57,323 nucleotides of DNA from an uncultured Clostridia bacterium (GTDB lineage: Bacteria > Acidobacteriota > Blastocatellia > UBA7656 > JADIYM01), in the NCBI GenBank assembly GCA_964641945.1, contig CAZXLQ010000002.1, forward strand, positions 1-57,323. Reading direction: 5' to 3'. Positions 15,902 through 55,790 of the stretch are shown piece after piece. The position numbers were made by a program, and so were the translations under genes. Below the pieces are notes generated by a model, which did no database searches, had not been told where the DNA came from, and saw only the letters and a list, made by a program, of their open reading frames with translations. Within the stretch, counting starts at the first letter, position 1. Every line of letters begins with the position of its first letter.

Positions 15902-16663
15902 TCACCTTCGTGACTCGACGGCCGCGCGGTCATGGTCGTCGAGGAACTCGGCCTGTGGATCGCGTGCGGGGTCGGAGTCGCCCAACGAGCTGTCACCGAC
16001 TACCTGCCCGTCGAGGAGGCGTACGACCCGGCGAGCGAGGCGGGCGACCGACTCGTCGTGCGTGACGACGACGACCGTGTGTCCGGCGCGGTTGAGTTCC
16101 GAGAGCAACTCCATTACCGCTCGACCGGTGCCGCTGTCGAGGTTGCCTGTGGGCTCGTCGGCCAGGATGAGCGGGGGCTCGTTGACCACGGCTCTGGCGA
16201 TGGCGACGCGCGCCTGTTCGCCGCCCGAGAGCTCCGACGGCAGACGACGCTCCATGTCCCCGAGGCCGACCGACTCGAGCGCTCGAAGCGCCAGCTCCCG
16301 CTTCTCTCGCGCCCCCAGCCTTGTGACGACGAGCGGGAGCTCGACGTTCTCGACCGCAGTCAGGTATGGCATGAGGTGGTGTTGCTGGAAGACAAAGCCG
16401 AGGTATTCGTTCCGAAAGTCGGCCCGCCTCTCATCAGTGAGCCCGTAGACGTCGATTCCTTCGAATCGGACGCTCCCTCGTGTCGGCTTGTTCATTGCGC
16501 CGAGAATCGTCAAAAGTGTCGACTTGCCCGAGCCCGATGGCCCCATGAGCGCGACGAACTCGCCCTCGGAGATCGAGAGGTCGACGCCGTCGAGCGCCGG
16601 CAGGTCGGCCACCGCGTAAAGCTTCCAGACATCCTCGAGCGAGATGAAGTCCCGATCAGACAT
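15902..16663 (-). CDS. ABC transporter ATP-binding protein (MacB/LolD-type)
   Basis: Start at MSDRDFISLEDV. Walker A is GPSGSGKST, the signature is LSGGEQARVAIARA, and Walker B is LILADEPTGNLD. It overlaps the permease gene by 8 nt. Confidence 0.9.
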   Translation of the reverse strand: MSDRDFISLEDVWKLYAVADLPALDGVDLSISEGEFVALMGPSGSGKSTLLTILGAMNKPTRGSVRFEGIDVYGLTDERRADFRNEYLGFVFQQHHLMPYLTAVENVELPLVVTRLGAREKRELALRALESVGLGDMERRLPSELSGGEQARVAIARAVVNEPPLILADEPTGNLDSGTGRAVMELLSELNRAGHTVVVVTHDESVARLARRVVRLLDGQVVGDSSLGDSDPARDPQAEFLDDHDRAAVESRR

Positions 16664-17927
16664 TGCGGAGCGCCTCCGTGGGGTCGAGTCGCGAGGCCCT
16701 GAGCGCCGGATAGAGAGCGCCGAGTGCGCCGAGCGCGACCGCGCCGCCAACGGCGACGAGCGCGACGATCGGGTCCGCCTCGACGGCCAGGGCGGCCCCT
16801 TGCGTGAAATACCGAATGGCGAGCGCCCCGACCCCGAGCCCGAGCCCCCAGCCGACGAACCCTCCGACCGCGGAAACGGCCGCGATCTCGATGCCGAGGA
16901 TGCAGAGGATGTGCGACCGGCGGAAGCCGACCGCGCGGAGGACGCCGATTTCGCGCCGCCGCTCGGTGACCGAGCTCGTCACCGTGACGAATACCAGCAG
17001 CGCGCCTACGACGAGAACGACCATGGCGAGCGCCGCGCCGAAGCGGCCGACGCGCGCGAGCGTCATCGAGCGGGCCTTGACGGCCTGCTGCACGGCCGTC
17101 ACCTGCGCGTTCGGAAGTGCGTCCGAGATCTGGGCGACCATCATCTCGACCGGACATTCGATGCAGAGCGCCGAGACCTCGACGAGGCTCAGCTCGCCGG
17201 GCCGGCCGAGGAGTTCCTGGGCCGTGGCAAGGTCGACGAACGCCATCCGGTCGTCGGCCGAGCCCACGGGCGCAAGCACGCCCGCGACCCGGAAATCGCG
17301 CCCGCCGAGCCTGACCAGGACATGGGCGAGCTCGACGGGGCTCGCTTCCTGCGTGCCCTCGGCCGGTTCCGCTCTCGTCGCTCGACCTGCGTGCGTCGCG
17401 TGGCGCGACGCGTCTTCGGACTCGGGCGCCTCGGCCGCGACGCCGGCGAGCACGGCCGCAGCCTCGCTGCCGAGCAACACCTCGTCGCGAGCGGTGGGGA
17501 GGCGGCCGTCGACGTGCCACCATGACTTCAACCGGGTCGTCTCCTCGAAGTCGACGCCCGCCACCGGGACGCGCCGGCCTCCGGCGTCGACCGAGCCGAC
17601 GAGCGCAGGGGCGACGACGGCGAGTCGCTCGGCGTATTCGATCGAGCGAATCGCATCGAGATCCTCGAAGCGAAGCCGCTCGACCTCGTAAGAGACGCCC
17701 GAGACCGAGACTCCACCGTAGCTCACCTCGAGGCCGTCGGTGCGCGGCGCAACGACGATGTTCGCGCCGTAGCGGTCGATCTCCTCGCCAAGGTGACGTT
17801 CGAGCGCCGTCGTGACGCCGGCAAGCGCCACAGCCGTCGCGACGCCGATTGCGAGCCCGACGGCGACGAGCGCGGCGCGGGCCTTGCCGCGCCGCAGGTG
17901 CTCAAATGCGATGCTCGCGAGTCTCAC
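16656..17927 (-). CDS. FtsX/MacB-type ABC transporter permease
   Basis: GTG start gives VRLASIAFEHLRRGKARAALVAVGLAIG, 10 nt after the upstream stop. It has a large periplasmic domain between TM1 and TM2 and a C-terminal FtsX-like 3-TM bundle. The start codon is uncertain. Confidence 0.75.
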   Translation of the reverse strand: MRLASIAFEHLRRGKARAALVAVGLAIGVATAVALAGVTTALERHLGEEIDRYGANIVVAPRTDGLEVSYGGVSVSGVSYEVERLRFEDLDAIRSIEYAERLAVVAPALVGSVDAGGRRVPVAGVDFEETTRLKSWWHVDGRLPTARDEVLLGSEAAAVLAGVAAEAPESEDASRHATHAGRATRAEPAEGTQEASPVELAHVLVRLGGRDFRVAGVLAPVGSADDRMAFVDLATAQELLGRPGELSLVEVSALCIECPVEMMVAQISDALPNAQVTAVQQAVKARSMTLARVGRFGAALAMVVLVVGALLVFVTVTSSVTERRREIGVLRAVGFRRSHILCILGIEIAAVSAVGGFVGWGLGLGVGALAIRYFTQGAALAVEADPIVALVAVGGAVALGALGALYPALRASRLDPTEALRNV

Positions 17928-17937
17928 AAGCAGCGCC

Positions 17938-18573
17938 TCAGAACCACCGGACGCCGGACGCGACGTCACTTCGTTTGACGACGATCGAATCGCCAGCGGT
18001 CGTAGACGGAAGCGAGATCGGGTGGCAGCCGCCCTTGCCACCCATTTCGGTAATCTCGGCGATGGCGAACGTCTTGCCACACTTGCGGCACTGCATGTGG
18101 TCGCCCTTCTGGACGTAGCCCTTCTTGGCCTCCGCGCAAACCTGGCATGCATCGAGCGCAACGTGTACGCGGCCCGCGGCGTCGCGCACGGCGAAGAACG
18201 GCACCTTCGTTCCGTTCATGTCGGCCGTGAAGAAGGCCGCCTCTGTCGTGATCCCGGCCGCGGGCACACGGACCACCTCACCGTCGAACGCAATCGGCTT
18301 GGCCGCCGACGCTGACGCCCCGGACGGAGCGCCGTTGTTACTCGCGACGCCTGTGGCACCGGTCGAGGGCGCCGCCGAGCCTCGGTCGACTCCCTCGCCT
18401 GAGTTGCCCCCTTTCGTGAAGAAGAACGCACCTGCAATCACGATGGCAACGGCGACGAACCCGACGAGGAGGGCGCTGCGGTTCCCTACTGACTTTGGCC
18501 GGGTTTCGTCGAAGCGGAGCCGCTTGCGATCTCGGTTCCCAACCGTGCTCTGGTCCGTGTTACTCATACTCAC
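17938..18573 (-). CDS. DUF2318-type membrane-anchored Cys-rich protein
   Basis: N-terminal TM helix (ALLVGFVAVAIVIAGAFFF). The extracytoplasmic domain carries CQVC...X17...CRKC plus GGCHP. The DUF2318 assignment is from memory of this architecture next to FtsX/ABC genes. Confidence 0.65.
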   Translation of the reverse strand: MSMSNTDQSTVGNRDRKRLRFDETRPKSVGNRSALLVGFVAVAIVIAGAFFFTKGGNSGEGVDRGSAAPSTGATGVASNNGAPSGASASAAKPIAFDGEVVRVPAAGITTEAAFFTADMNGTKVPFFAVRDAAGRVHVALDACQVCAEAKKGYVQKGDHMQCRKCGKTFAIAEITEMGGKGGCHPISLPSTTAGDSIVVKRSDVASGVRWF

Positions 18574-18638: not shown

Positions 18639-18812
18639 TTAAACGTGTCGACGTGGCGCGGCGGACTCCAACACGTCCTCGGGGGCCGGGATGATCTCGG
18701 GCTCGAGCGCGTCGGCGACCTCGTGGACCGGTGCTGCATCGAGGTGCGAGTCCTCGGGCCAGATGAAGTTCTCGTCGTCAAGGGTCATCCTGCATGTCCC
18801 GCACTGTTTCAT
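18639..18812 (-). CDS. Possible 57-aa acidic CxxC protein translationally coupled to the GH57 gene
   Basis: Not in the ORF track (below 60 aa). Sequence is MKQCGTCRMTLDDENFIWPEDSHLDAAPVHEVADALEPEIIPAPEDVLESAAPRRHV. It has an ATGA overlap with the GH57 stop and a strong GC3 bias. Confidence 0.45.
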   Translation of the reverse strand: MKQCGTCRMTLDDENFIWPEDSHLDAAPVHEVADALEPEIIPAPEDVLESAAPRRHV

Positions 18813-21268
18813 GATGACTCCTCTCCTTGGGCAACGGCAGCGTTGCGTGTGACGTTCGAAGTGACCTGTCTCGCATCGTCGACACCTTCATCCTCGCGTT
18901 CGCTGGGGTATCGCGACGCCATCGAGTCGATCACGTCGGCGGCGGGTCGCGCACCCGCGTCGCGAGGCGACTCGCGAGCGGAGTCCGCGTCGCCGACACG
19001 CACCCGCGTCACGCGCGCTTGGCAGCAAGAGTGCGTCTTCGTGCAGCCCTCGTGCTGGCATTCGAACATGAACTCGAGGAGGCTGGCCTCCGCTCCGAAG
19101 GGCCCGAGCACGAAAGAGTATCGACCCCTGCCCGCCATTACGCCGCCTTCGGGCGCGAGGTCCGCGCTCTCGGGTGCCGTGCCGTCGATCATCCAGCTGA
19201 GCCTCCCCGGGCAGTGCGTGCGGATCGTCAGGCGGTCGCGCGGTCCGACGCCGGCGACGGGCCGGCTGTGGGTCCAGACGACCGTGTGCAGCGCGATGTG
19301 CTCGTCGAGACGGCGCGGTGCGGCGGCGCCGAGCGACGCGTAGATCGCTTTCAGATGGCCCCGGTACACCTCGTCGAAGACCTCGTCGCGCCCCGAGTTC
19401 TGATCGTCGCCGTACCACCAGAACCAGTCGCTGCCCTCGGCCATGTAGGCCGAAAGGTAGGCCGACGGCGCGTCGGCCGGGGTCGCGCCGCTTGCGGCGA
19501 GAAACCGCCGCGCTTCGGCCAGGAGCCGCCACGCGCGGTTCTCCTCGTCCTCGCCGATCCACGTTCCGAGGTCGACGCCGGGCCGCGACCCCGCTTCGTC
19601 GATCCACGACCCGGTGAACAGGTCGTAGATTGCGGGCATCCGGTCGATCGGATGCGGCGCGACGCGGCGCAGAGCGTTGCCGCGGATGTACTCGCCGAAC
19701 GTCACGGTCCGCAGCTCGGGATCCCGCTCGAGCAGGTAGTACAGGGCCCGCAGGAACGGCCTGGCGTCCTCGCGGTACGACCCCCACGCGTTCTCGCCGT
19801 CGAGCGCGATCGCGAGGACTCGGTCGCCGGTGTCGCCGACCCGACGAGCGAAGCGCCCCTTCACGTCCGCGACGAATGCGCGAGCGGCGGCTTCGGGATC
19901 GTCGTACCGCCGAAAGTGGAATCCGATCGCGTCCGAGAGCCACGTGTCGCGGAAGTACACACACGGTCGCTCGAGATCGAAGGGGCGGTAGGGCTGGCAC
20001 AAGACGTCCGGAAGGTCGGCGTCGTATCCCCACCGGCCCGACCGCGCCAGGACGCCCTTGTCGGACGCCACCCACTCAATCCCATTTTCTTCGAACAGTG
20101 GAAGGACATCGTGCCCAACCGCGCCCTCCGCGGGCCACATGCCGGTCGGCCGCCGACCGAAGGCCCCCTCGTACCATTCGACGGCGAGCCGCACCTGTGC
20201 CGCCGCGTCTTCGGGGTAGTGGAACCGCAGAGGCAGTTTGGTACCCGGTCTATCCAGGGTCGCCCGATCCGTATCGACCAGCAACGGGAGGATGGGGTGG
20301 AAGAACGGCGTCGTCGAGATCTCGATCTGCCCGCAGTCCTGGAGGTAGCGGTGTAACGGGATGATGGCCTCCATGATCTTGTACTGCTCTTCGACCATCT
20401 CGTCGAGTTCGCTCGTCGTGAAGCCGCGCCCCTGCTCGACGAATCGCCGCACGCTTGCCGTCTCGCCCGTCGCGAGGTGGACGACGCCGTCGCGGAACTC
20501 CTTACCGAACCAGGCGAGGTTGAACCACATCTGCAGGTCGCGCACATCCTGCGCGTCGAAGGCCGCTCCTTCGTGCCGCTGCGCGAACAGCTCCGCGTAG
20601 CGCTCGTGGCCGAGGATCTGGTTGTGCCAGTCGGCGTCGAAGAAGCTCGACAACACGGCTTCACGCTCGGCGTCGTCGAGGAGTTCAGCCGGCTTGAGCG
20701 TGAGGTCGAGGGCACGGTCGGTGGCGCCTCGCTCGACGTAGTCCTCGATCTGCCACGCGAGAGCGGGCGTCAGGTTGATCGTTAGATGCAGATCGGGGTG
20801 CGCCGCGACGAGGTGCGCCATCGAGTAGTAGTCGCGTATCGCGTGTAGCCGGACCCACGGCAGCGCGTAGCTCCCATCCTGAACCGGGTGAAGCTCGTTT
20901 TTGTAAACCGGCTGGTGGTGGTGCCAGAGCATCGCGACGAAGAGCTTCGGCCCGACACGAAACGAGAAGTCCTCGGTCGCCGCGTCGCCGTCGTCGCCGC
21001 GCGCCCGGATGCGGTAGGTCACGTCGTCGCCATCGGCGAATGGCCCGAGGGTCGCAGACCAATAACTGTTCTCGCCGCGATTCTCTCGCCATCCGCATGG
21101 CGCGATGTCGGATCGCAGCCCGCCGTCCGTGCCGCGAACCCTCACCTCCACCCATACCCTTTGCCTCGGCGCGACGGGCCACGTGCCCGCTTGCATGGTC
21201 GCCCTCTCGCCCGCGCTGACCCGCCGCGGCTCTCGCTGAGCATCTGGTGTCGAGTGCCAGACATGCAT
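18809..21268 (-). CDS. Glycoside hydrolase family 57 protein with N- and C-terminal extensions
   Basis: 819 aa. The GH57 core motifs are MLWHHHQPVY..., PWVRLHAIRDYY and TINLTPAL. GGAGGG RBS. It has a ~110-aa N-terminal beta-rich domain and a long C-terminal region. Confidence 0.8.
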   Translation of the reverse strand: MHVWHSTPDAQREPRRVSAGERATMQAGTWPVAPRQRVWVEVRVRGTDGGLRSDIAPCGWRENRGENSYWSATLGPFADGDDVTYRIRARGDDGDAATEDFSFRVGPKLFVAMLWHHHQPVYKNELHPVQDGSYALPWVRLHAIRDYYSMAHLVAAHPDLHLTINLTPALAWQIEDYVERGATDRALDLTLKPAELLDDAEREAVLSSFFDADWHNQILGHERYAELFAQRHEGAAFDAQDVRDLQMWFNLAWFGKEFRDGVVHLATGETASVRRFVEQGRGFTTSELDEMVEEQYKIMEAIIPLHRYLQDCGQIEISTTPFFHPILPLLVDTDRATLDRPGTKLPLRFHYPEDAAAQVRLAVEWYEGAFGRRPTGMWPAEGAVGHDVLPLFEENGIEWVASDKGVLARSGRWGYDADLPDVLCQPYRPFDLERPCVYFRDTWLSDAIGFHFRRYDDPEAAARAFVADVKGRFARRVGDTGDRVLAIALDGENAWGSYREDARPFLRALYYLLERDPELRTVTFGEYIRGNALRRVAPHPIDRMPAIYDLFTGSWIDEAGSRPGVDLGTWIGEDEENRAWRLLAEARRFLAASGATPADAPSAYLSAYMAEGSDWFWWYGDDQNSGRDEVFDEVYRGHLKAIYASLGAAAPRRLDEHIALHTVVWTHSRPVAGVGPRDRLTIRTHCPGRLSWMIDGTAPESADLAPEGGVMAGRGRYSFVLGPFGAEASLLEFMFECQHEGCTKTHSCCQARVTRVRVGDADSARESPRDAGARPAADVIDSMASRYPSEREDEGVDDARQVTSNVTRNAAVAQGEESS

Positions 21269-22259: not shown

Positions 22260-22799
22260 ATGGAAATCACCGTGTTCCGACGATCCATCGCGACGGTGCT
22301 GCTCGCGATGCTCGTGCCAGCGGCTGTCGTGGCGCAGCACGACAAGCGACCGCCGGCGGCACGCGGAAAGAGCACCTTTCTCGGAGACGGCATGGGTACG
22401 ATCACCCCGAGCCTCATGGAGGTCGCGACGAAAACGAACCTCTTTCTCGCGATCGCCGACCAGATCAGTTTGACCGAGGCGCAGCGCCGCGAGATCACCG
22501 ACATCGTATTTCGATTGCAGCGCGACGCCGGTGAGACGAGGGGCGACCTCGGCGTGGCGCAAGCGGAGTTTCAGCGTATGCTCGGCCGCGACCGAATCGA
22601 CCTCGAGGCGCTCCGAACCAATCTCGCTCAGGTCCGTGCGCTCGAGACCGACCTCGAGTTCCTCACCTTCGAGGCGTTGCTGCGGGCGATCGGCGTCCTG
22701 ACGCACGAGCAGCACCTCCGCGTCATCGGCCTCGCGACGATGCCAGGTCGCGCACAGGCCGCCGCCCCCGTGCGGCCTGGCCCGGACGAATTCCGCTAG
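22260..22799 (+). CDS. LTXXQ-motif periplasmic protein (Spy/CpxP/ZraP family)
   Basis: Start at MEITVFRRSIATVLLAMLVPAAVVAQ, preceded by TAGGAGG. Two LTXXQ motifs are present (SLTEAQRREI and VLTHEQHLRV) in a helical, charged sequence. Confidence 0.75.
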   Translation: MEITVFRRSIATVLLAMLVPAAVVAQHDKRPPAARGKSTFLGDGMGTITPSLMEVATKTNLFLAIADQISLTEAQRREITDIVFRLQRDAGETRGDLGVAQAEFQRMLGRDRIDLEALRTNLAQVRALETDLEFLTFEALLRAIGVLTHEQHLRVIGLATMPGRAQAAAPVRPGPDEFR

Positions 22800-22910
22800 G
22801 ACTCGCGCTCCGGCAGGACTCGTAGCTGTACGCAGAGGCGCGAGCGTCGACGGCAGCGGCGAGCGGGAGTCGCACGCCGACGGCGATGTCCGGACGGGCA
22901 CATTGTCGGG

Positions 22911-22980
22911 GGAGTGCAAGGGCAAGGAACGGACGAGGACGGGTCAACAGTTCTCGCCAATCCGTCGTCGTGTCCACGAT
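22911..22980. repeat. 70-bp direct duplicate of an internal MFS-gene segment
   Basis: About 64 of 70 positions match 24433-24502 by hand alignment (the region encoding DTTTDWR.LL.R.RP.LALAL). It abuts the transposase fragment. Confidence 0.7.
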
Positions 22981-23330
22981 AGGCGCGCTGCGCCTCCTCG
23001 GTCATCTGCCAGTCGCTGATTCGCTTGAGCTGCTTATAGGCAACACCCTGCGTGATCTGGGCCATCGTGTGCAGGCCGATGTTGCAGCCGTGCGCCAACG
23101 TTGCTGCCAGGATCATGCACACGTCTTCGGAATCCCGTCCTCCTCGCTGGGCCGGAGACAGGAAGTGATCGGTGAAGCGCAAGTCGTTATCGACCTCGAT
23201 GAGCAGGTCCGGAAGCCGGCTCGTGCGCATCTGCCTGGTCAGCCATCGTTTCAGGTCGCCCAGCCGTGTTTGCGCCGCTTCGTCCAACGTCTCGGTGGCG
23301 TCGGTGGACAGGCGCCATCTGCCTTTGTCC
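22981..23330 (-). mobile_element. Internal fragment (~116 aa) of a Tn3-family transposase
   Basis: Sequence is ...RLPDLLIEVDNDLRFTDHFL...DSEDVCMILAATLAHGCNIGLHTMAQITQGVAYKQLKRISDWQMTEEAQRA. This resembles the central DDE_Tnp_Tn3 region. It is truncated at both ends by unrelated sequence, and no terminal inverted repeats were recognised. Confidence 0.6.
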
Positions 23331-23748
23331 ACCGATGAGCGACAGCTTTCCAGGCCACATCATTTCCTGCTGTGACGGTGACGATGCGGCGGCTCGACGG
23401 GTCGCCGTTCTGGACGTCGAAGGGGACGATGCTCCCCATCGAGTCGACCTCGAACATCGGCTGAGGCCAGGCTTTCGCTTGCGGAGTGCGAGCCTGCATT
23501 GCATCGAAGCTGCGAGCCATGGCCGCGATCGCGGGGTTGTGCTCGAGCGCGTCATCCACCAGCTCGCGGAGCACCGCGACGGAGTGTGCGGGCACGGAGC
23601 GCTCCGGCACCGGTGCGGCGATATTGATCGAGGGGCGCGGCGCAGGAAGCTCTGCCGAGCTCGACGGCTGCGCCTGCCCGTAAGCGCTCGTGCCGGGAAG
23701 CGTGAGCACGATGAGTACGAGAGCCCTCAACGCCTTCTTCGTATGCAT
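23331..23748 (-). pseudogene. 5'-truncated copy of an OMF gene (N-terminal ~135 aa), interrupted by the transposase fragment
   Basis: GGAGGA RBS and signal peptide MHTKKALRALVLIVLTLPGTSAYGQ. The segment VDDALEHNPAIAAMARSFDAMQARTPQAKAWPQPMFEVDSMGSIVPFDVQNGDPSSRRIVTVT is about 80% identical to OMF 2. A frameshift follows, then QEMMWPGKLSLIG, and homology ends. Confidence 0.7.
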
Positions 23749-23902
23749 GGCATGTCCTCCGGGTTCCTGGGGCCAGGCCGTTCTTCGCTCGAGCCGACGG
23801 CAACTGCCGTGCCAGTCAACGTGGATTCGTGGGCAGTCATCGGTCGGCGCAGTCACGGATTCCCTCGCGAGTTGACGTCCGCTGTTGCGGTCGTTTTCTT
23901 CA

Positions 23903-25138
23903 TCAAGCGAGTCTGGCCTCGCGAGCCCGATCCAGCACGTTCCAGGCGACCATCAATGCGAGCGCGACCAGCAACGCACCACTGAGCAAATACGGCGCGT
24001 CGACATGCCAGATGAAGAGCATACCGCCCAGGAGGGGTCCGATCGCCTGTCCGAGACTGTTGGCGGCGTTCTGAATACCGAGCGACGCCCCGGTACTTCC
24101 TTCTCCGCCGCGCGTCGAGATGAGGGCCGCCAGATTCGGCGCGATGAAAGCCATCCCGAATGCGAGCAATGCGACAAAGGCGAAGACAAAGAACGATGTC
24201 CGAGCTGTCGCAAGCAACGCGATGCCGGTACCCATCAAGGCAAAGCCAATGCCAATCTGGAGCATCTCGCCAACTCGTCCGGCAAGGAATCCAACAGCGC
24301 CTGCCTGAAAGACGGTCATCACCAGGCCGCACACGACAAAGATGTATCCGACCTCGACGGGTCCGAAATCGAACTTCGCCTTCGCGTAGAGCGCGATCGT
24401 CCCCTCGAACATCGTCAGGGCAAGTTGTCCGGCGAGTGCAAGGGCAAGGAGCGGACGAAGACGGATTAACAGTCCTCGCCAATCCGTCGTCGTGTCCACG
24501 ATCGGCTCATCCGCCGGTCCTGCTGGCCTGGACTCCGGCAGCCAGCGCAATGCCGCAAACAGCGTCACAAGACCTAACACCGCTGCCGCAAAAAACGGAA
24601 TCGAAAAGGCGTCAAACGTTAAGTGGCCGATGCTCCATCGCAAATGAATCTCACTGCGAGACAGCAATCCGCCAAGTGCTGGTCCGACAACGACGCCGAG
24701 ACTCACCGCCGTGCCGAGCCACGCCATTCCGCGACTTCGCTGCTCTGGCGTCGTCATATCGGCAACGTAGGCCGCAGAAACCGGCAATGTCGCCGACGAC
24801 AATACTCCTCCGACGATTCGCGCTGCGTACAAGAGCCACAGCGACGTGGACAAACCGAACATCACTTGCGCCACAACGTAGCCCGCGATGCCAATGAGAA
24901 TCAGCGGTCTCCTGCCGATGCGATCCGACCAGCGTCCCCACAAAGGTGCGAAGACGAGTTGAGCGAGCGCGTACACACCAGTCAAAAGGCCGACGTGCAT
25001 CACCATTGACTGTTGCGTCGATCCCTCTTCCAACGCGAGGCGCTCCACGTAGAAGGGCAGCACGGGCATCGTAATGCCCAGGCCGATCATGACGACGAAC
25101 AGGCAGGCGAGAAGTACGAAGAGGTGCTTGTTGATCAC
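23903..25138 (-). CDS. MFS transporter (DHA1/tetracycline-efflux-like, 12 TM)
   Basis: 411 aa. Motif A-like sequence is GRWSDRIGRRPLILIG. The hydropathy pattern is typical of the family. Confidence 0.85.
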   Translation of the reverse strand: MINKHLFVLLACLFVVMIGLGITMPVLPFYVERLALEEGSTQQSMVMHVGLLTGVYALAQLVFAPLWGRWSDRIGRRPLILIGIAGYVVAQVMFGLSTSLWLLYAARIVGGVLSSATLPVSAAYVADMTTPEQRSRGMAWLGTAVSLGVVVGPALGGLLSRSEIHLRWSIGHLTFDAFSIPFFAAAVLGLVTLFAALRWLPESRPAGPADEPIVDTTTDWRGLLIRLRPLLALALAGQLALTMFEGTIALYAKAKFDFGPVEVGYIFVVCGLVMTVFQAGAVGFLAGRVGEMLQIGIGFALMGTGIALLATARTSFFVFAFVALLAFGMAFIAPNLAALISTRGGEGSTGASLGIQNAANSLGQAIGPLLGGMLFIWHVDAPYLLSGALLVALALMVAWNVLDRAREARLA

Positions 25139-25265
25139 GCCGAGGTCCTTCCGTGCGATGCGCTACAGGCGGTGACACGCACGGGCCGAGTCGCATCAGG
25201 CTCGCGACACCTGAGGACCGTTGGCGCGTTGCTTCTTGTCCAATTGCCGGCAAGGGGCTGTGGAC

Positions 25266-25280
25266 GCAACCCTCGTGCCG
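25266..25280 (-). promoter_or_regulatory. Sigma54 promoter P5 (GGCACG-AGGG-TTGCG) for the MFS transporter
   Basis: The minus strand reads CGGCACGAGGGTTGCGTC, an exact GGCACG-N4-TTGC match ~125 nt upstream of the ATG at 25138. Confidence 0.7.
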
Positions 25281-25352
25281 ACAAACGACGTCCTGAAATC
25301 CCGCTTTTCGTGCGTACTTTCTCGGACGAAGCGGAGCATCGCCCCACGAAAT

Positions 25353-25366
25353 GTCTGTCTTCAGAC
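25353..25366. promoter_or_regulatory. GTCTG-N4-CAGAC inverted repeat; candidate UAS for P5
   Basis: Sequence is GTCTGTCTTCAGAC, 73-86 bp upstream of the P5 -24 element. The same 5-4-5 element (GTCTGGTTTCAGAC) lies 100-113 bp upstream of P1. Confidence 0.4.
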
Positions 25367-25864
25367 ACGTCGATGTCTGCAGAGCCGTGATTCCCTGTCA
25401 TGGCAGCGACAGGGCCAACAGCGAGGAGCAGGCGACCGTCGCTGGAGACCTGCACGTTGTAGGGAGAGATGGACGTCGCAATCGATTTGACCTGACCGGT
25501 GCTGAGATCAATCACGGTGATGGAGTTGCCCCGCCCGTCGGCCGTAAACGCGAAACCCGCCCCCGGCAAAACCTCCGACGAGGCGGCGGCGGAAGACCCA
25601 TTGGAGTTGCCTGTTCGCTCCTGGTGAACGGCAGCTGGCCGTGAACAGGCGGCTACGAGAACAAACAGGGCCGTGAGTAATGCAGGCCAGGCGAATTTGT
25701 TCATTGAAAAGTCCCCCTTTTCGGAGATCCGAGTTGCCCGGAACCGTCTCTCCGGAGCGGGCAATCGGTGTCTCGAGTCGCTCACCAGTTGCGATCTCGG
25801 ACAGGCACATCGAATCGACAGAGACACGGCCAGCCGCACGCCAGTCGCTCTCCTTCCGTTCATC

Positions 25865-26260
25865 TCACACGGCGCCCTGCGACTTCTCCAGGCGGTGGAC
25901 GCTGACGGTGCCGCAGCAGCCTCCGGCGCTGTCTACGACGGGCAGGCTCGTCGCGCCGTGCTCGTGGAGTTTCCGGCGCGCATCGTCAACGGGCTCGTCT
26001 GCGCCACAACACGCCGACAACGGTCGCATTATCTCCTCGACGCGAACGGCCGAGGCATTGCGGTCTTCGGCAACCACGCCGCAACAGACATCGCGCTCGG
26101 TGACGACGCCGACCATCTTGAGGGTGTCTGTATCCTCGACGACAGGCGCGCAACCGCAGCCTGAATCGCGCATCGCCCGGGCGGCGTGTGCCGCCGTGTC
26201 CCGTGGCGAGCAGCACGAGGACGCTTCAATTGGTGTCATCACTTCATTGCAACAAGTCAT
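25865..26260 (-). CDS. CBS-pair domain protein with 12 cysteines arranged as five CC pairs and one CGC
   Basis: 131 aa with CBS-like periodicity (MTP...P.DT...A...M...G.G..PVVED...L.GVVTERDV, then EEIM...ADEPV..A...L.EHG...LPVVD). Cys pairs are TCCN, SCCS, GCGC, VCCG, ACCG and GCCG. Confidence 0.75.
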   Translation of the reverse strand: MTCCNEVMTPIEASSCCSPRDTAAHAARAMRDSGCGCAPVVEDTDTLKMVGVVTERDVCCGVVAEDRNASAVRVEEIMRPLSACCGADEPVDDARRKLHEHGATSLPVVDSAGGCCGTVSVHRLEKSQGAV

Positions 26261-26478
26261 GGTTTTGTTCTCCTTCAGATCGCATGATCAAGATTAACGA
26301 GCGTGGCGCTCAGCGCGACAACGAGGCAATTGTCACATCGATGACCGGTGTCGCGTCGCCCGCATCATCACGTGAACGGAACGGCGCTGTGCCTACCTTT
26401 CGAACCCCACCCGAAACCCGATGCGTCCGTGACCAAGCACACCTGGATCAACTACGACGCGTCCATCCAGCTAGTCAT

Positions 26479-26643
26479 TCACGCCTCGGCTGCCTTGCTT
26501 GCATACTGCTCCGGGTGTTCATCAAATTTCGTTTTGCAGCCTTCGCCGCAAAAGTGATACGTGGTCCCCTGGTGTGTTGACTGCAGTGCGGCCGTTTGAT
26601 CTTCGATCGTCATGCCGCAGACAGGATCTGTATGTGTCGCCAT
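26479..26643 (-). CDS. YHS/TRASH-domain mini-protein
   Basis: Start at MATHTDPVCGMTIEDQ...YHFCGEGCKTKFDEHPEQY, preceded by GAGGAG. The ORF-track start lies 30 codons further upstream. Confidence 0.8.
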   Translation of the reverse strand: MATHTDPVCGMTIEDQTAALQSTHQGTTYHFCGEGCKTKFDEHPEQYASKAAEA

Positions 26644-26805
26644 TGGTTTGTCTCCTCTCAAGTTGAAAGTTCGAAAACTGTCGCATGCACTGACCTCAGC
26701 GCACTCCGGTGACACCGGTCGATGCAGGGGCAAGGATTAGTACGGCTGCGCACTCTGGCGACGGTGCTGGGATGCAATGTGCACGTGCCCGCATTGTTGT
26801 GTCCT

Positions 26806-29391
26806 TCAACGAGTCGTTCCGGTTGCTGACACCGCTGGGACGGCATCGCCGTTTGATGTCGGCTTCGGGATGGCGGCACCCAGTGCAGGCGCCGAGGACT
26901 CGGTCATCTTCACGCGCTTGAGCAACAGCGCGTTGGCGACCACGATCAAGGTTGAACCGGACATCGAGAGTGCTGCGACCTCGGGGCTCAGCAGCCATCC
27001 GGTCATCGGATAGAGCACGCCGGCGGCGAGCGGGAAGGCAATGACGTTGTATCCGGCGGCCCACCACAGGTTCTGCCGCATCTTGCGCCTCGTGGCACGG
27101 CTCAGGATGACGGTGCCGATCACGTCGAACGGGTCGCTCTTCATTAGCACCACATCGGCGGTCTCCATTGCCACGTCCGTGCCCGCGCCGATGGCGATGC
27201 CAACGTCAGCCTGCGCCAGCGCCGGTGCATCGTTGATGCCGTCGCCCACCATGCCGACGCGCAGCCCGCGCGCCTGCATCTCTTTGACCTTCTCCGCCTT
27301 CTCGCCCGGCTGGACCTCGGCGAAGACCGTCGTGATGCCGAGCGCTTTGGCAACCAGGTTGGCAGTGCCTTGATTGTCACCCGTCAACATCGCCACCTCG
27401 ATGCCGAGCGCCGCCATTCGGTCGATCGCCTGTTTCGCGTTCGGGCGAATCGCGTCGGCGATGGCGATGAGTCCGCCCGCAAAACCATCAATGGCGCAGT
27501 AGACGACGGTGTTTCCTTTCTGCTCGAGCGCCCGCGCCCGGTCGTCCAGTCTCTCGAGGGAAATGCGGTTGTCGTCCATCAGCTTGCGATTGCCGGCGAG
27601 CACTGTGCGCCCGTCGACGGTCGCACGCGCGCCGTGCCCCGGAATCGCCTCGAAATTCGACGGCGCGCTGAGCGTCACGCCGTCAGCCTTCGCCTTCTCG
27701 ATGACGGCTTGCGCCAGCGGATGCTCACTCGATTGCTCGAGCGACGCGACGAGCCGCAACAGTTCCTTGTCATCGACAGGCGTTGCGTCGACGACGATCT
27801 CAATGACTTGAGGCTGGCCAATGGTGAGCGTGCCCGTCTTGTCGAAGATGATCGCTTGCAGTCGGCCCGCCTCTTCGAGCGCGGTCGCATCCTTGAACAG
27901 TACGCCGTTCTCGGCGCCCTTGCCGCTCGCGACCATGATCGCCATGGGCGTCGCGAGCCCAAGCGCGTCGGGACAGGCGATGACCACGACCGTAATCGCG
28001 AGCAGCATGGCGAAGACCGCGGTCGCTCCGGCGAGCCAGAACCAGACTACGAACGTTGCGAGGCCGAAGACGACTGCCGAGATGGTCAGCACCTGCGCGG
28101 CGCCGTCGGCGAGTCGCTGCGACGGTGCTTTGGAGTTCTGCGCGGCCTGGACGAGCTTGACGATCTGGGCGAGTGCGGTTTCGGCCCCGACTCTGGTGGC
28201 GCGGAAGCGAAACGTCCCAATCTTGTTGATCGTCGCGCCGATGACCGCATCGCCGACACCCTTTCTGACAGGCATACTCTCGCCCGTGATCATTGATTCG
28301 TCGACGTTCGACTCGCCCTCGATCACGTCCCCGTCCACCGGGAGCTTGTCGCCCGGGCGGATCATCACGATGTCGCCCGTGACAACCTCGGAGGTCGGAA
28401 CCTCGACAGGCAGACCCTCGCGTATCACCGTCGCTTTCGGCGGCGCGAGGCTGAGAAGCGTCTGAACGGCTTTCGATGCTCCGGCCCGAGCGCGCATCTC
28501 CAGCCAGTGCCCGAGCAGAATGAAGACGAGCAGCATGGCGACCGCTTCGTAGAAGACTTCGGCCGTGAAGAAGAAGGTGGCACCGACGCTGAAGAGATAG
28601 CCCGCCAGCACGGAGAGTGAAACGAGCACCGCCATGTTGGCGACACCGTTCCTGAGCGCCCGCCACGCGCCCACGTAAAAGACCCACCCGCCGTACACGA
28701 CCGCCGGAGTTACAAGCAGAAACCCCAGCAGTTCCTTCGAGATTCCAAACGGCGTTGACAACGCAATGCCAGTGAGTTGCTGGAACATCGGCGCGTAGAG
28801 GTAGATGAGGAATGCGAGGGCGAGCGTTACGAAGAAGCGGTTGCGCATGTCGCGCACCATCCCGTCCATTGACGCTCCCATCCCGTGACCCATCTCCTGG
28901 GCCATCTCCGTCTTGTCCCGCCCCATCTCGTACGCCCTATGACCGGCGTGATCGTCAGCCTTCGCGACGCTCGCGGGCGGCCGGGGTTCAGCCTTGCCCT
29001 TGTGCTCCAGCGGTTTGACAACTTGTGGCGTGGCTGGGGCTGCCGCCGTGATTCTCTCGGCAATCGGTTTGAGCGCCGAGGGCGTCGGAGACAGCGGCCC
29101 GTCATGACCCTGATGCTCCATCGCGCCGACAGCCGGCGTCTCAGCCGGTGTGTCCGGCTTGCAAACGTGCGCCGGCACGACCGCGCCGCGGCAGTGGTAT
29201 CCGCAATCGGCAATGAAGCGGTTGATGTCATCCAGCGCGACGCGAGCCTCGTCGTAATCGATGGTCGCCGTACCAGTCAGAAAGTTGACGTCCACGCGCA
29301 CGACACCGGCGCGGCGTCTGAGCCGCTTCTCGACGCCTGCGTGGTCGAGAACTGACATCATCCCGTCGATTGCCACAGATGTTGTCTTCAT
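26806..29391 (-). CDS. Heavy-metal P1B-type ATPase, CopB-like, with a CPD transmembrane motif and a degenerate HMA domain
   Basis: Start at [10 protein letters not shown]. Catalytic motifs are TGES, DKTGTLT, SEHPLA and [12 protein letters not shown]6 reads [12 protein letters not shown], and TM8 reads MSGST (P1B-3-like MSxST). The N-terminal ferredoxin-like domain has GMMSVLDH instead of GMTCxxC. A His/Met-rich linker is present ([31 protein letters not shown]). Confidence 0.9.
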
Positions 29392-29614
29392 GATTTGCGT
29401 CAGCGAAGCCCTGAGGATGATTCGCCTGCCCACCGCACATGAACACTCCGGCGTCGCCGCCGATGCTCGAGCCGCGGGCAGGCTCGCGAACTGAAGAAAC
29501 CCGTTGTGATCTGTCGGTGCGAGACGGTTGTTTCTCGGGAAAGGAAGAAACCGGCGGCCTGCCTGCGCTAGAAGCACCGTGACGAGAAACTGAGTCGCTC
29601 GACGAACCTCCAAG

Positions 29615-29630
29615 GGCAATCAGCGTGCCA
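29615..29630 (-). promoter_or_regulatory. Sigma54 promoter P2 (TGGCACG-CTGA-TTGCC) for the ATPase operon
   Basis: The minus strand reads GATGGCACGCTGATTGCCC, a full consensus match. The -12 element lies ~225 nt upstream of the ATG at 29391. Confidence 0.75.
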
Positions 29631-30024
29631 TCAGCCGAAGACGCATCGATGCCGCGCGTTCGTTGCTGCAGATGAGACCTGCGCCAGCATGAATGGATGC
29701 GTTCGTTGCACAACATCCGTACAGGTGCACCAAAGCAGGACACTCGTCAAATGCCAAATGAATGCCGCAGGATGGAGAGTCCGACACTTGCCTTGTGTTC
29801 CGGACGAGCGACGCACAGTTCATGCCAAAGACCTCGCCGGGGAGGCCGCCCCTCCCGAAAGGACCTGAATCCGGAGCACGAGTGACGGGCTATCCTCGAC
29901 GTTTTGGGTCGGCGGCGGATTGAAATGAACGTGGCCGGAAGCGGCGGGCCGGATCCATGCCAGCACGCTGGCCCGAATCGAACTCCGGCCCTGCGGGAGC
30001 TCTCGCGGCCGCACCTTTCCTCGA

Positions 30025-30038
30025 GGCACGTGAATTGC
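30025..30038 (+). promoter_or_regulatory. Sigma54 promoter P7 (GGCACG-TGAA-TTGCG) for the Met/His-rich protein operon
   Basis: The plus strand reads GAGGCACGTGAATTGCGCT, an exact GGCACG-N4-TTGC match ~185 nt upstream of the ATG at 30222 and divergent from P2. Confidence 0.7.
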
Positions 30039-30221
30039 GCTAGGGACTGCAGGTAGGTGCGACTCCGTCGCCGTTATTCGAGACAGTCATTGCCCGGCGT
30101 CGACTGGAAAACAGCGACCGACGCGAACGGAGTGAAACGCGCCCCACGAGACCCGGTGCATGAGCGCCGAAACACGGAATTCGAGCGTGCTCGTCCACGA
30201 GCACAGAAGGAACGACCAATC

Positions 30222-30767
30222 ATGAAGACAAGAGCAGAGATCTCGATAGTCGCGTTGCTCGCGCTGACGATATTCGGCGCGGGAAGCGCGATGGCGCTCG
30301 CCCGACAGCATCATGGTGCGGAAAAGCCGATGCAGCACGGCACGGGGAAAATGGACATGTCCGGAATGATGGCCGAGCCGCACCACGTGCTCGCCATGGC
30401 CTACATGCAGAACCTGGGAGCATTCACGCACGCCCTGCGCCATCAGTCCGAAGCGGTCAGTCCGCTCGACGCGGCCTTTGCCCGCTCCGCGGTCGATGAG
30501 ATCAAGCGGAGCTTCGACGAGATGGAGAAGCATCACGGCGAGCACATGAAGACGATGAGCACTGAAATGCGCACGCACATGGAAGCGATGATGAAGGAAA
30601 TGGGTATGCACCGGGCCATGCTCAAGGACTCGGTCGGTGCTCTCGACAGGGACGTTCAATCCGACCATATCGACGCGAAGAAGGTGGCGGCGGACTGCGC
30701 GGTCATTCTCGAGCATCTCGATGCGATGTCGAAGATGCACGCCGACAAGAAGCCGATGAAGATGTAG
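30222..30767 (+). CDS. Secreted Met/His-rich all-helical protein (possible CopM/DUF305-like periplasmic copper binder)
   Basis: Start at MKTRAEISIVALLALTIFGAGSAMALA. The mature part has HHGAEKPMQHGTGKMDMSGMMAEPHH and EKHHGEHMKTMSTEMRTHMEAMMKEMGMH. The family name is a guess. Confidence 0.65.
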   Translation: MKTRAEISIVALLALTIFGAGSAMALARQHHGAEKPMQHGTGKMDMSGMMAEPHHVLAMAYMQNLGAFTHALRHQSEAVSPLDAAFARSAVDEIKRSFDEMEKHHGEHMKTMSTEMRTHMEAMMKEMGMHRAMLKDSVGALDRDVQSDHIDAKKVAADCAVILEHLDAMSKMHADKKPMKM

Positions 30768-32635: not shown

Positions 32636-33493
32636 TCACACTCGGATCAGGTCGACGGAAACCTCGAAATCGTCCGAAACCGTGAGGATGTGATTCGGAG
32701 CGACCCGTTTCCAACCGCGTCGTTCCTCCGTGAGAGGCTCGGAAGCGACGATTACCGACGGCTCGTCGGGCGGCCGACGTTCGAGCTTCGCCATTCCGTC
32801 GTCGAGGACGAGCTTCAGCCCAACGGCGAAATAGAGCGACACCGGCTCGAGCTGTGAGTCCGACCCGTAGCGGGCCATCGCCAGTCGCTCGCCGTCGGTG
32901 ACCGCGAAATTGTAGAAGGAAGGGGCGCAAACGCCGGCCTCCGAGGACCAGCGCTCGAGCCGTCGGATTGTCTCGACGAGCGCCTCACCCAGCGCGCTCG
33001 CCGAGTCGGGGCTGCCATCGCGAATGAGAGAGAGGAACACCGCGAAGGCGTGCTCGGAATCGGTCGTCCCCTGAATGCTCTCGTAGGCCGCGTCGTCGAG
33101 CGACGCGCGCAGTCGCCGCTTGATACTCGCGAATCCACCAATCGCGCCGTTGTGCATCCAGAGATAGGGGCCGCACTGGAACGGGTGGCAGTTCTCCTCG
33201 GAGACTCGCATCCCCGCGGAAGCGGCTCGCACGTGGGCGAAGAAACAGGGCGACCGGATGTGCCCCGCAAGGCGGCGCAGGTTCTGATTCCCCCAGGCGG
33301 GAGTCACGCTCGTGAAGACGCAGGGGGTCGCGTCCACGCCCGGTACGTACCACCCGACGCCGAATCCATCTCCATTGAGTGGTTCGGCCCGCTCGCGAGC
33401 CTTGTACGACTGCGTGATCAACGAATTCGGCGGTCCACAAAGCAGCTCTTCGAGAAGCAGCGCTGGCCCGCGATAACAGATGAACCTACACAT
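32636..33493 (-). CDS. Class-II (Ntn) glutamine amidotransferase, YafJ/EgtC-like
   Basis: N-terminal MCRFICYRG provides the Cys nucleophile directly after Met1. NGDGFGVGWY and HPF...WMHNGAIGGF motifs are present. It overlaps the upstream YHS gene by 8 nt. Confidence 0.75.
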   Translation of the reverse strand: MCRFICYRGPALLLEELLCGPPNSLITQSYKARERAEPLNGDGFGVGWYVPGVDATPCVFTSVTPAWGNQNLRRLAGHIRSPCFFAHVRAASAGMRVSEENCHPFQCGPYLWMHNGAIGGFASIKRRLRASLDDAAYESIQGTTDSEHAFAVFLSLIRDGSPDSASALGEALVETIRRLERWSSEAGVCAPSFYNFAVTDGERLAMARYGSDSQLEPVSLYFAVGLKLVLDDGMAKLERRPPDEPSVIVASEPLTEERRGWKRVAPNHILTVSDDFEVSVDLIRV

Positions 33494-54564: not shown

Positions 54565-55248
54565 TCATCGCTTGACCTCCTCGTCTTCTCTGATCTCGAC
54601 GGGATGCCCTTCGGCGCTCCACTCGGGAAATCCGTCGACGAGACGACGCGCATTGCGCCCTGCGGCCCGCAAGGTCTCGACCGCGCGGTGCGACCAGACG
54701 CAGTAGGGGCCGCGGCAGTAGGCGACGACCTCCTTGCTCCGCGGCAACTCGCCGAGCCGCTCCTCGAGCTCGTCGATGGGAATGGAGACGGCGCCCGGGA
54801 CGTGGCCCGCCTCGAATTCCTCGGAGGGCCGAACGTCGAGGACGACGACGCGCCCCGATCTCGCGCGCTCGAGCAACTCGTGCCTCGGCACGGGCTCAAG
54901 CTCGTCGCGATGGCCGACGTAGGCCGAGACGATGCGGTCGACCTCGGCGAGCCGTCGCTCGGCAAGCGCACGCACCGACTGCAGCAGATCGTAGACGCCT
55001 GGCTCGGCGAGACGGTAGTAGACCCGCAGTCCCTGCTTTCGCGACTCGACGAGCCCTGCCTCGCGCAGAACCTGTAGATGACGCGACCCGTTGGCCACCG
55101 ATAACGAGGCGCGTTCGGCAAGCACCTCGACCGAGCGTTCACCTTGCGCGAGCACGTCGAGCAACTCCAGGCGCGCGGGACTCGCAAGCGCCCCGCCGAC
55201 CCGCGCGAACTGCTCGTACAACCTGTTCTTCAACTCCCGATCGCTCAC
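54565..55248 (-). CDS. ArsR/SmtB-family transcriptional regulator fused to a rhodanese domain
   Basis: GTG start preceded by GAAGGAGGG. The wHTH is LASPARLELLDVLAQGERSVEVLAERASLSVANGSRHLQVLREAGLVESRKQGLRVYYRL. The rhodanese half is VVLDVRPSEEFEAGHVPGAVSIP...VVAYCRGPYCVWS. Confidence 0.85.
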   Translation of the reverse strand: MSDRELKNRLYEQFARVGGALASPARLELLDVLAQGERSVEVLAERASLSVANGSRHLQVLREAGLVESRKQGLRVYYRLAEPGVYDLLQSVRALAERRLAEVDRIVSAYVGHRDELEPVPRHELLERARSGRVVVLDVRPSEEFEAGHVPGAVSIPIDELEERLGELPRSKEVVAYCRGPYCVWSHRAVETLRAAGRNARRLVDGFPEWSAEGHPVEIREDEEVKR

Positions 55249-55266
55249 GAGTTCCCTCCTTCTGAT

Positions 55267-55294
55267 ATTCAAGTAATTCGTTGAATACTTGAAT
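55267..55294. promoter_or_regulatory. Candidate ArsR operator: nested palindrome ATTCAAGTA-N10-TACTTGAAT
   Basis: It sits in an AT-rich patch 19 nt upstream of the ArsR-rhodanese start. The 9-bp arms are exact reverse complements, with an inner TTCAA/TTGAA pair. Confidence 0.45.
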
Positions 55295-55790
55295 TGAGGC
55301 GCTCGTGTCAAGCGAGGGCAGTGCGCACGATCCGCGCAGCACACAACCGATTGCGAGCGGCCTTACAGTCTGTCCGCGAGCAAACCGGACGGCGCGAGTG
55401 CGCGAATCGTCTTCGCCGCACGCGCGCCTCTCGGCTAACCGGCGGCCGTAACGCACCGACCGCGGAGCGGTCGCATCTTCAGTCCCAAAGATAACGTGCG
55501 TCGTAGGCGACACCGGGCTCGTCGAGCATTGAAACCAACTCCTCGTCGCAGGACACGCGCCGGTGGTGCTCCTCAGTGCGACCGCTCCGCGGTCAGTGCG
55601 TGACGGCTGGCGGTTCCCGCGGTCGCCGACCAACGGCTATCCGGAATCGGCATTGACGGCTCGAGGTCGCCCTCAGGGCCGGGTCGTTGCGGCTCGAGGC
55701 CGCATCCGCAACAATCGTCTTCGCGTCGGCACCCGCGAATGACTCCTGTACTGCGCCACTGCCCGACTCGTCGACAGCACTCGTTGCGAT

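Follow-up and report, generated by a model that had tools for sequence, protein, structure and literature searches.

CBS pairs (tandem cystathionine beta-synthase motifs, which together form a Bateman module) are very common regulatory modules, and almost the only role known for them is the sensing of adenosine-containing ligands. Each of their cavities is made up of three blocks, namely a linker with a short helix ahead of beta1 of one motif (block 1), beta2 of the same motif with the adenine-pocket motif "h y y' h' P" (block 2), and beta3 of the other motif together with the opening turns of the helix that follows, which carry the ribose motif "G h h T/S x x D/N" (block 3) (PMC6429129). Among the stand-alone CBS proteins described are hypoxic response protein 1 (Hrp1, Rv2626c) of Mycobacterium tuberculosis, which is prominent as a latency antigen in tuberculosis and whose function is unknown, and the product of a CBS open reading frame (ORF) in an ars operon of O. 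tritici, which was reported to be necessary for proper ArsB function (PMC2440759). In this study, we report on CBScc, the label given here to a cysteine-lined CBS-pair protein encoded at 25865..26260 on the minus strand of a stretch of bacterial DNA of 57,323 nucleotides (the whole of this stretch is referred to as the window). Its 12 cysteines lie in close pairs, are retained across phyla and map onto the segments that form the ligand cavities of the fold. We tentatively favour a role of these thiols in binding a thiophilic metal.

The CBScc gene and its cysteines

An earlier note on this DNA, drawn up from its letters, had claimed a CBS-pair ORF of 131 amino acids (aa) at this place. The ORF was present and the Pfam CBS profile matched it with E=3.9e-19 (69.1 bits, cut-off 24) in two stretches, which correspond to two tandem CBS motifs. 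CBS was the sole Pfam match of the protein, and no signal peptide was found, which points to a cytoplasmic location. The paired cysteines described in the same note, about 9% of the residues and none of them isolated, were found at exactly the sites that it had listed. They are at positions 3,4 / 16,17 / 35,37 / 59,60 / 84,85 / 115,116, in the motifs TCC, SCC, GCGC, VCC, ACC and GCC, that is, five CC pairs and one CGC. This amounts to 12/131 residues (9.2%) versus 0.61% in the 27 other proteins of the window, and only one of 200,000 shuffles of the CBScc sequence placed all 12 cysteines at two residues or less from another cysteine.

Conservation of the cysteines among orthologues

A search of 5.8 billion proteins retrieved 1058 homologues of CBScc. 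The best 120 cluster representatives were 77-99% identical and nearly all 127 aa long, and in them the 12 cysteine columns were 99.4% conserved versus 87.6% for the remaining columns. When species-representative genomes were scanned for orthologues, 53 loci were obtained. Most of them were not from Nitrospira but from Gemmatimonadota and Acidobacteriota (Thermoanaerobaculia, Vicinamibacteria, Pyrinomonadaceae, Blastocatellia, Bryobacterales and Chloracidobacterium), with 64-84% identity to CBScc; the taxonomic labels of metagenome-assembled genomes are individually fallible, but the overall phylum pattern was consistent. A family specific to Nitrospira is ruled out by the orthologues of this identity in many metagenome-assembled genomes of the two other phyla. 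A cultured Nitrospira, N. lenta, carries an orthologue (WP_121990535.1), and the family occurs both in nitrite oxidisers and in dominant soil phyla. This undescribed family is common to bacteria from soil and water that belong to several phyla, and its high identity between phyla suggests horizontal transfer of the gene. Two or three CBScc paralogues were observed within a few kb in some Acidobacteriota loci (L035, L041, L044).

At the codon level, 56 distinct orthologous genes of Nitrospirota, Acidobacteriota and Gemmatimonadota were compared, with 64-99% identity. Cysteine was kept in 98.2% of the cells in its 12 columns versus 82.8% in the other columns. Both TGT and TGC were in use at each of the 12 sites, and therefore the cysteine sites have had time to mutate. 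Histidine was the only recurrent replacement (C60H six times and C35H twice), and the change from TGC to CAC costs two nucleotide substitutions. Position 60 was Cys in 49/56 genes, with a single Tyr besides the histidines, and position 59 was Cys in 55/56. Such retention with replacement by His only is what would be expected of ligands, metal ligands among them, and not of small hydrophobic filler of the protein core. The earlier note had considered that homologues might lack the cysteine pairs; on the contrary, strong purifying selection has maintained the pairs in every close homologue.

Predicted structure and ligand cavities

The AlphaFold2 model of CBScc, built from 128 diverse sequences, had a mean predicted local distance difference test score (pLDDT) of 93.7 and a predicted template modelling score of 0.87, while 59 close homologues alone gave a pLDDT of 49. 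The model showed the canonical Bateman topology, with the order beta1-alpha1-beta2-beta3-alpha2 repeated twice, as expected of such a module. Foldseek found 420 PDB matches at E<=0.001, and the top 50 listed were all CBS proteins. Hrp1 (1Y5H, 1XKF) was among the best of them, with a template modelling (TM) score of 0.76-0.83 and a root-mean-square deviation of 2.2-2.5 Å, together with 9Z6R, MJ0922, MJ0100, CBSX1/2 and 4FRY. The sequence search of the PDB agreed, since Hrp1 was found by phmmer with E=4.3e-5.

The cysteines were assigned to the two cavities from the motifs and the secondary structure of the model. By this mapping, cavity A receives eight cysteines (3, 4, 16, 17, 35, 37, 115 and 116), distributed over all three blocks. 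In its block 2, C35-G-C37-A-P39 falls exactly on the adenine-pocket motif, and in its block 3, C115-C116 stand directly before a degenerate ribose motif of CBS2, G117-T-V-S120-V-H-R123, from which the ribose-binding Asp/Asn has been lost and whose last position is variable (H/G/S/R) in the 56 genes. Cavity B receives four cysteines (59, 60, 84 and 85) and consists of C84/C85 (block 1), the pocket A-T-S-L-P107 (block 2) and the intact ribose motif of CBS1, G51-V-V-T54-E-R-D57, followed by V-C59-C60 (block 3). G51, T54 and D57 were unchanged in 56/56 genes, and V52, V53, E55 and R56 were at least 97% conserved. We infer that the thiols may cluster in space.

The earlier note had described the cysteines as replacing residues that are normally hydrophobic and in beta-strands, which was only partly right. 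In 201 relatives with less than 50% identity, sites 35, 60, 115 and 116 were indeed usually V/I/L/M, but sites 37, 59 and 84 held small residues (A/S/T), and sites 4, 16, 17 and 85 were already Cys in most of them. In the model, only C3 (in a bridge), C17, C37, C85, C115 and C116 belong to strands, while helices hold C4, C59 and C60, and loops hold C16, C35 and C84.

Distant relatives and origin of the cysteine pattern

When 1.8 billion representatives were searched exhaustively with HMMER, the scores dropped sharply beyond the CBScc family, with only 12 matches below 1e-30. The next relatives were stand-alone CBS pairs, 30-45% identical. A profile search revealed an abundant Hrp1-like subfamily with the consensus MKCxEIMTxxPxCCLPxDT...GIVTDRDLAxKVVAEGRD...VTC...HQVRRIPVVD...EISK, which has exactly four cysteines, at the sites of C4, C16, C17 and C85. 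This four-cysteine pattern was present in 111 of the 201 distant relatives, and over the whole set Cys was found at the C17 site in 96%, at the C85 site in 91% and at the C16 site in 76%. Other relatives hold subsets of the remaining cysteine sites, and cysteines at 35, 60, 115 and 116 tend to co-occur (phi 0.3-0.53) among these relatives, which are phylogenetically non-independent. Judging from this distribution, we regard cysteines 4, 16, 17 and 85 as ancestral to the large Hrp1-like subfamily. The 12-cysteine protein would then be the extreme of a trend, with the ancestral four, a second set and two extra cysteines (3 and 84). Giant proteins of 1100-3200 aa (P0123, P0125, P0131 and P0132) were also seen, which match the query in 5-9 separate CBS stretches.

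Genomic context of the orthologues

The neighbourhoods were sampled from nine annotated contigs and the 53 genome loci, with neighbours grouped by all-ORF clustering, and the counts refer to 34 non-redundant loci for which 8 kb of sequence or more was available. CBScc was found in co-oriented but shuffled gene mosaics. Metal genes (P1B ATPase, resistance-nodulation-division (RND) system or His/Met-rich periplasmic protein) were present in 20/34 loci, and energy or stress genes in 19/34, the latter comprising phosphoketolase (XFP), acetate kinase (AckA), glucose-6-phosphate dehydrogenase (G6PD), glycoamylase, zinc-dependent alcohol dehydrogenase (Zn-ADH) and universal stress protein (Usp). Both themes were present in 9/34 loci and neither in 4/34. 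CBScc was adjacent to P1B ATPases in many loci, in no fixed position. The adjacent ATPases were of the CPD+MSGST type (10), of the CPC type with YHS/HMBD N-termini (8) and of the CPH type (4), with two more of P2-type; in loci other than that of the window, YHS is fused to the N-terminus of the CPC-type ATPases. Since three copper ATPase subtypes are adjacent to CBScc, the link to copper pumps arose repeatedly and was not inherited as one operon. In two loci (L036 and L051) a copper ATPase starts within about 60 nucleotides (nt) of the CBScc stop codon. The family of the major facilitator superfamily (MFS) transporter that lies near the gene in the window (neighbour cluster 7) was found in 12 loci, and in 8 or more loci besides the window its gene immediately precedes CBScc.

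A fixed copper operon is ruled out by the shuffled order and the equally frequent energy and stress neighbours. The copper and transporter context put forward in the earlier note stands in one respect, given that copper P1B ATPases of three subtypes, YHS/TRASH proteins, Cus-like RND systems and His/Met-rich proteins do recur, but the context is not specific to copper and no transporter is fixed in it.

The energy genes form a recurrent co-oriented set of glycoamylase (GH15), ROK kinase, G6PD, 6-phosphogluconate dehydrogenase, phosphoketolase, acetate kinase, Usp, a LOG-like protein and Zn-ADH (L001, L004, L006, L008 and others). Together they trace a pathway in which glycogen yields glucose, which then passes via the oxidative pentose phosphate pathway and phosphoketolase to acetate kinase; this suggests a glycogen-to-acetate survival island common to Nitrospirota and Acidobacteriota. 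CBScc sits in mobile islands that join copper efflux with this pathway. The energy genes, together with Usp, the LOG-like protein and alcohol dehydrogenase (ADH), resemble the low-oxygen (lxa) locus of B. cenocepacia and the DosR regulon, which contains Hrp1 (PMC3721108). With respect to membership in a low-oxygen regulon, neighbours of this kind (Usp, AckA, XFP, ADH and G6PD) occurred in 19/34 loci, and no shared upstream operator was found.

A conserved leader, TGAATTTCGATCT followed after 5-9 nt by CTGAAGGAG, lies roughly 35-42 nt ahead of the start codon (L004, L006, L011, L013, L017 and L025). This leader accompanies the CBScc gene regardless of the upstream gene and was absent upstream of other island genes, and its copy in the window has diverged and carries a small GC hairpin. 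It matched no Rfam family. A shared operator or regulon motif was considered and rejected, as the leader is specific to the CBScc gene and no FNR, DosR, CsoR or CueR-like box was seen by eye. In the window, the Shine-Dalgarno sequence GAAGGAG lies about 9 nt upstream of the CBScc start codon, and the strand of the gene showed no sigma-70 consensus promoter anywhere in 23800-30200.

Features of the window

The window has a guanine plus cytosine (GC) content of 64.8% and is, by its gene content, a metal-resistance island. It encodes three RND systems (two of them of the heavy-metal Cus type), a cation diffusion facilitator, a multicopper oxidase, DUF302 and Metal_resist proteins, a YHS gene, sigma54 and CusS-like two-component systems, and a fragment of a Tn3 transposase. 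The annotation and organization of the relevant part are provided in Table 1. The placement of CBScc between the ATPase/YHS genes and the MFS exporter was as the earlier note had it, with all of these genes on the minus strand, and the order ATPase-YHS-CBS recurs in another locus (L010). The YHS gene likely starts at the ATG of MATHTDPVCGM near 26643, and the ATPase likely near 29391. In the transmembrane metal motif of this ATPase, CPD takes the place of CPC/CPH. The protein also shows MSGST, its N-terminus is rich in His and Met, and its HMA fold lacks CxxC. This atypical P1B-3 subtype was noted once in a survey of Rhizobiales (PMC5552934).

The ORF between CBScc and the MFS gene matched nothing in Pfam or NCBIfam and was not flagged by the codon-position GC filter; it is probably a decayed remnant outside the system. 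The transposase fragment adjoins a short stretch that duplicates a portion of the MFS gene (DTTTDWRELL...), and, together with the decayed ORF, we read both as signs of a rearranged mosaic region. The secreted His/Met-rich protein had no match in Pfam or NCBIfam either and members of its family accompany CBScc at 8 further loci, so that it is a candidate for an undescribed copper-binding protein of the periplasm. The EgtB-like, class-II glutamine amidotransferase and ArsR-rhodanese genes of the same island give a hint of low-molecular-weight thiol chemistry (ergothioneine-type) and sulfur chemistry. Additionally, an FtrD-like membrane iron-sulfur (Fe-S) protein gene adjoins an ABC transporter gene and a GH57 glycoside hydrolase gene, just upstream of the metal genes. 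For this hydrolase gene, the best genome match had only 62% identity, and mixed phyla were represented.

Table 1. Coordinates in the window of the CBScc gene, its cysteine and ribose-motif codons, its leader and the neighbouring genes
Feature	Position	Strand	Remarks
CBScc gene	25865..26260	-	ORF listing; ATG start; 131 aa; Pfam CBS
C3-C4 codons	26249..26254	-	Cys in 56/56 genes, TGT and TGC; N-terminal linker/short helix before beta1, cavity A block 1
C16-C17 codons	26210..26215	-	Cys in 56/56 genes; linker end and beta1 of CBS1, cavity A block 1
C35-G36-C37 codons	26150..26158	-	C35: Cys 54/56, His 2; C37: Cys 56/56; beta2 of CBS1, cavity A block 2
G51-V-V-T54-E-R-D57 codons	26090..26110	-	Intact ribose-binding motif, cavity B
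C59-C60 codons	26081..26086	-	First turns of helix alpha2 (model helix 55-63) just after D57, cavity B side
C84-C85 codons	26006..26011	-	Cys in 55/56 genes each; inter-motif linker end and beta1 of CBS2, cavity B block 1
C115-C116 codons	25913..25918	-	Cys in 56/56 genes each; beta3 of CBS2 (model strand 114-120), cavity A block 3
CBScc 5' leader	26261..26312	-	Shine-Dalgarno at about 26270-26276; GC hairpin 26298-26312 (terminator scan)
YHS/TRASH-domain protein	26479..26733	-	Pfam YHS E=2.5e-18
Copper-type P1B ATPase	26806..29619	-	Pfam E1-E2_ATPase, Hydrolase, HMA; NCBIfam ATPase-IB1_Cu 604 bits
ORF between CBScc and MFS gene	25135..25863	-	Lipoprotein-like start, then degenerates (beta-propeller-like)
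DHA1-type MFS transporter	23903..25138	-	Pfam MFS_1 E=2e-58
Tn3-family transposase DDE fragment	22723-23332	-
GH57 glycoside hydrolase	18809-21268
FtrD-like membrane Fe-S protein	17938-18573	-
MacB/FtsX-type ABC transporter	15902-18161	-
Secreted His/Met-rich protein	30057-30767	+	236 aa
Class-II glutamine amidotransferase	32636-33493	-	GATase_4
ArsR-rhodanese fusion	54565-55344	-
EgtB-like protein	55791-57119	+	DinB_2 and FGE-sulfatase

Possible functions of CBScc

In our opinion, the best account of these data, to which we give a probability of about 0.4, is that the thiolate-lined cavity A binds a thiophilic metal, most probably Cu(I), and that CBScc is a cytoplasmic buffer or a sensor acting in trans. 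Motifs of the vicinal CC and CxC type characterise soft-metal sites, for example those of ArsD, MerA/MerT and the metallothioneins. CBScc would be a soluble stand-alone Bateman protein of the Hrp1 type in which the adenosine-pocket segments have been re-lined with thiols. In cavity A, a metal-thiolate centre would form around at least one thiophilic metal ion, and Cu(I) appears to be the best candidate in view of the neighbouring genes. Cavity B has probably kept its ability to bind an adenosine nucleotide, and the protein could possibly integrate the metal signal with the adenylate status read there, acting in trans on partners of the same island, for example the copper ATPase or the MFS transporter. 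The toxicity of Cu(I) to Fe-S enzymes is greatest under low oxygen, and this is a plausible link between the copper and the energy/low-oxygen themes of the neighbourhoods. In its most extended form, CBScc would be the first metal-thiolate module of the CBS fold, with an eight-cysteine cavity for Cu(I), another soft metal or a cluster and a second cavity reading adenine nucleotides, working as a two-input copper/redox-energy sensor or buffer and spread horizontally among Nitrospirota, Acidobacteriota and Gemmatimonadota. We consider this extended form doubtful.

It must be noted that several observations weigh against metal binding. C115 and C116 are neighbours on one strand and face opposite sides of the sheet, so they cannot both reach one site, and therefore not all eight cysteines can line one pocket. 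The invariance of the GVVTERD motif speaks for continued nucleotide sensing of the ordinary kind, and for the same reason CBScc is not simply a metallothionein. Energy and stress genes are about as frequent around CBScc as metal genes, the gene order is shuffled, and neither a fixed partner nor a constant transporter was found. In addition, three neighbourhoods of the ancestral four-cysteine subfamily held acetate kinase, a Crp-family regulator, Usp, PNPOx, ferritin and trehalose synthase, with no metal genes in any of them. Finally, a query rich in cysteine biases which relatives are retrieved.

The main rival of the metal-binding reading is an Fe-S or thiol-redox sensor, in which an Fe-S cluster, a Zn/thiol switch or vicinal disulfides would report O2, nitric oxide or the redox state to a low-oxygen or dormancy response, as in the DosR regulon of Hrp1 or the lxa locus of Burkholderia. 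We judge it unlikely, but it has clear points in its favour. Hrp1, a member of a hypoxia regulon, is the closest structural relative of CBScc; neighbours of the lxa/DosR type recur (Usp, acetate kinase, Zn-ADH, LOG-like "lysine decarboxylase" and a cation ATPase; PMC3721108), and the four-cysteine subfamily adjoins Crp/Fnr-type regulators together with Usp, PNPOx and acetate kinase. Moreover, Cys-to-His exchange also occurs among Fe-S ligands. What counts against such a sensor is that vicinal cysteines offer a poor geometry for ligating a cubane Fe-S cluster, that CBScc has neither CxxC spacing nor a match to the CCG domain of HdrB, that there are no Fe-S assembly genes nearby, and that the repeated adjacency of three copper ATPase classes and of YHS is left unexplained. 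A non-cubane cluster held by an HdrB-type CCG domain had been suggested by three CCG tripeptides (VCCG, ACCG and GCCG) and was rejected: PF02754 gave no match at E<=0.01, CxxC is lacking, and the spacing differs from CX31-39CCX35-36CXXC.

CBScc could also be an ordinary regulatory subunit that senses adenine nucleotides and acts in trans on the MFS transporter or the P-type ATPase, with cysteines that are merely small hydrophobic or structural residues. The intact GVVTERD and xPVV motifs agree with this, CBS domains regulate MgtE, CorC, ClC and similar transporters (PMC6429129), and the ars-operon ORF of O. tritici offers a precedent with ArsB. The MFS genes directly upstream and the copper ATPases that closely follow CBScc in the loci mentioned above also speak for it. 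However, structural sites would be expected to drift to A, V, S or T, while the cysteines changed recurrently only to His over 56 genes of at least three phyla; the second ribose motif is without its Asp, and no transporter is a constant partner. This explanation is accordingly improbable to us, somewhat more so than the redox sensor. As for the idea that the pairs are lineage-specific noise or that the ORF is an artefact of a GC-rich shadow frame, the region is certainly GC-rich and has several overlapping shadow ORFs. The Pfam match, the strong Shine-Dalgarno sequence and the coding-type bias in codon-position GC all speak against it, and it is excluded, with a negligible residue of doubt, by more than 1000 homologues, the retention of the cysteines across phyla and the confident model.

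Comparison with known systems

The earlier note knew of no described metal-sensing CBS module of this type, and in agreement with it, we found no paper on a cysteine-lined CBS module in the literature searched and no NCBIfam model for one. If the preferred reading of a metal-binding cavity is true, cysteine pairs on the pocket segments would add metal or redox sensing to the abilities of the CBS fold. This could give a function to part of the Hrp1-like group, and it may bear on how these bacteria survive when copper is in excess or oxygen is limiting, both in soils and in wastewater treatment. As CBScc is small and soluble, the metal hypothesis is experimentally tractable.

Hrp1, 4FRY, 9Z6R, CBSX1/2 and MJ0100 are likewise proteins of about 130 aa made up of a single Bateman module and no further domain. 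CBScc shares with this group the "GhVTxRD" and "xPVV" motifs and the cysteine at the C17 position, and relatives stand in neighbourhoods of the stress or low-oxygen type. It differs from Hrp1 in sequence (about 20% identity), in having 12 invariant cysteines where relatives have from none to four, in the degeneration of one ribose motif and in a gene that often adjoins copper efflux genes. Given that the function of Hrp1 is unknown, membership in the Hrp1-like group gives no mechanism.

The CBS ORFs of ars operons (arsRDA-cbs-B of O. tritici and transposons of A. caldus and L. ferriphilum) also encode small stand-alone CBS proteins beside a metal(loid) pump. Compared by description only, they differ from CBScc in that no cysteine-pair signature has been reported for them and in their fixed operon position, in contrast to the shuffled context of CBScc. 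TA0289 (1PVM, 2QH1; Foldseek TM about 0.75) combines a CBS pair with a cysteine-ligated metal site; its iron is held in a separate C-terminal domain similar to rubredoxin or a Zn-ribbon, while the cysteines of CBScc are inside the Bateman module itself.

Neither fold nor profile places CBScc in the metallothionein, Csp, ArsD or CCG-domain families. In particular, it did not match the ArsD family in Pfam or NCBIfam, and its fold is a CBS pair, as opposed to the thioredoxin-like ArsD, the four-helix bundle of Csp and the fold-less metallothioneins, with which it has no sequence similarity. ArsD carries three vicinal cysteine pairs (PMC2440759). With ArsD, MerA/MerT, the metallothioneins and Csp, CBScc has in common a cysteine content of about 9-10%, the CC/CxC motifs, a cytoplasmic location and a gene beside the cognate metal pump, and by analogy it may work as metal binders of the metallothionein, Csp and ArsD type do.

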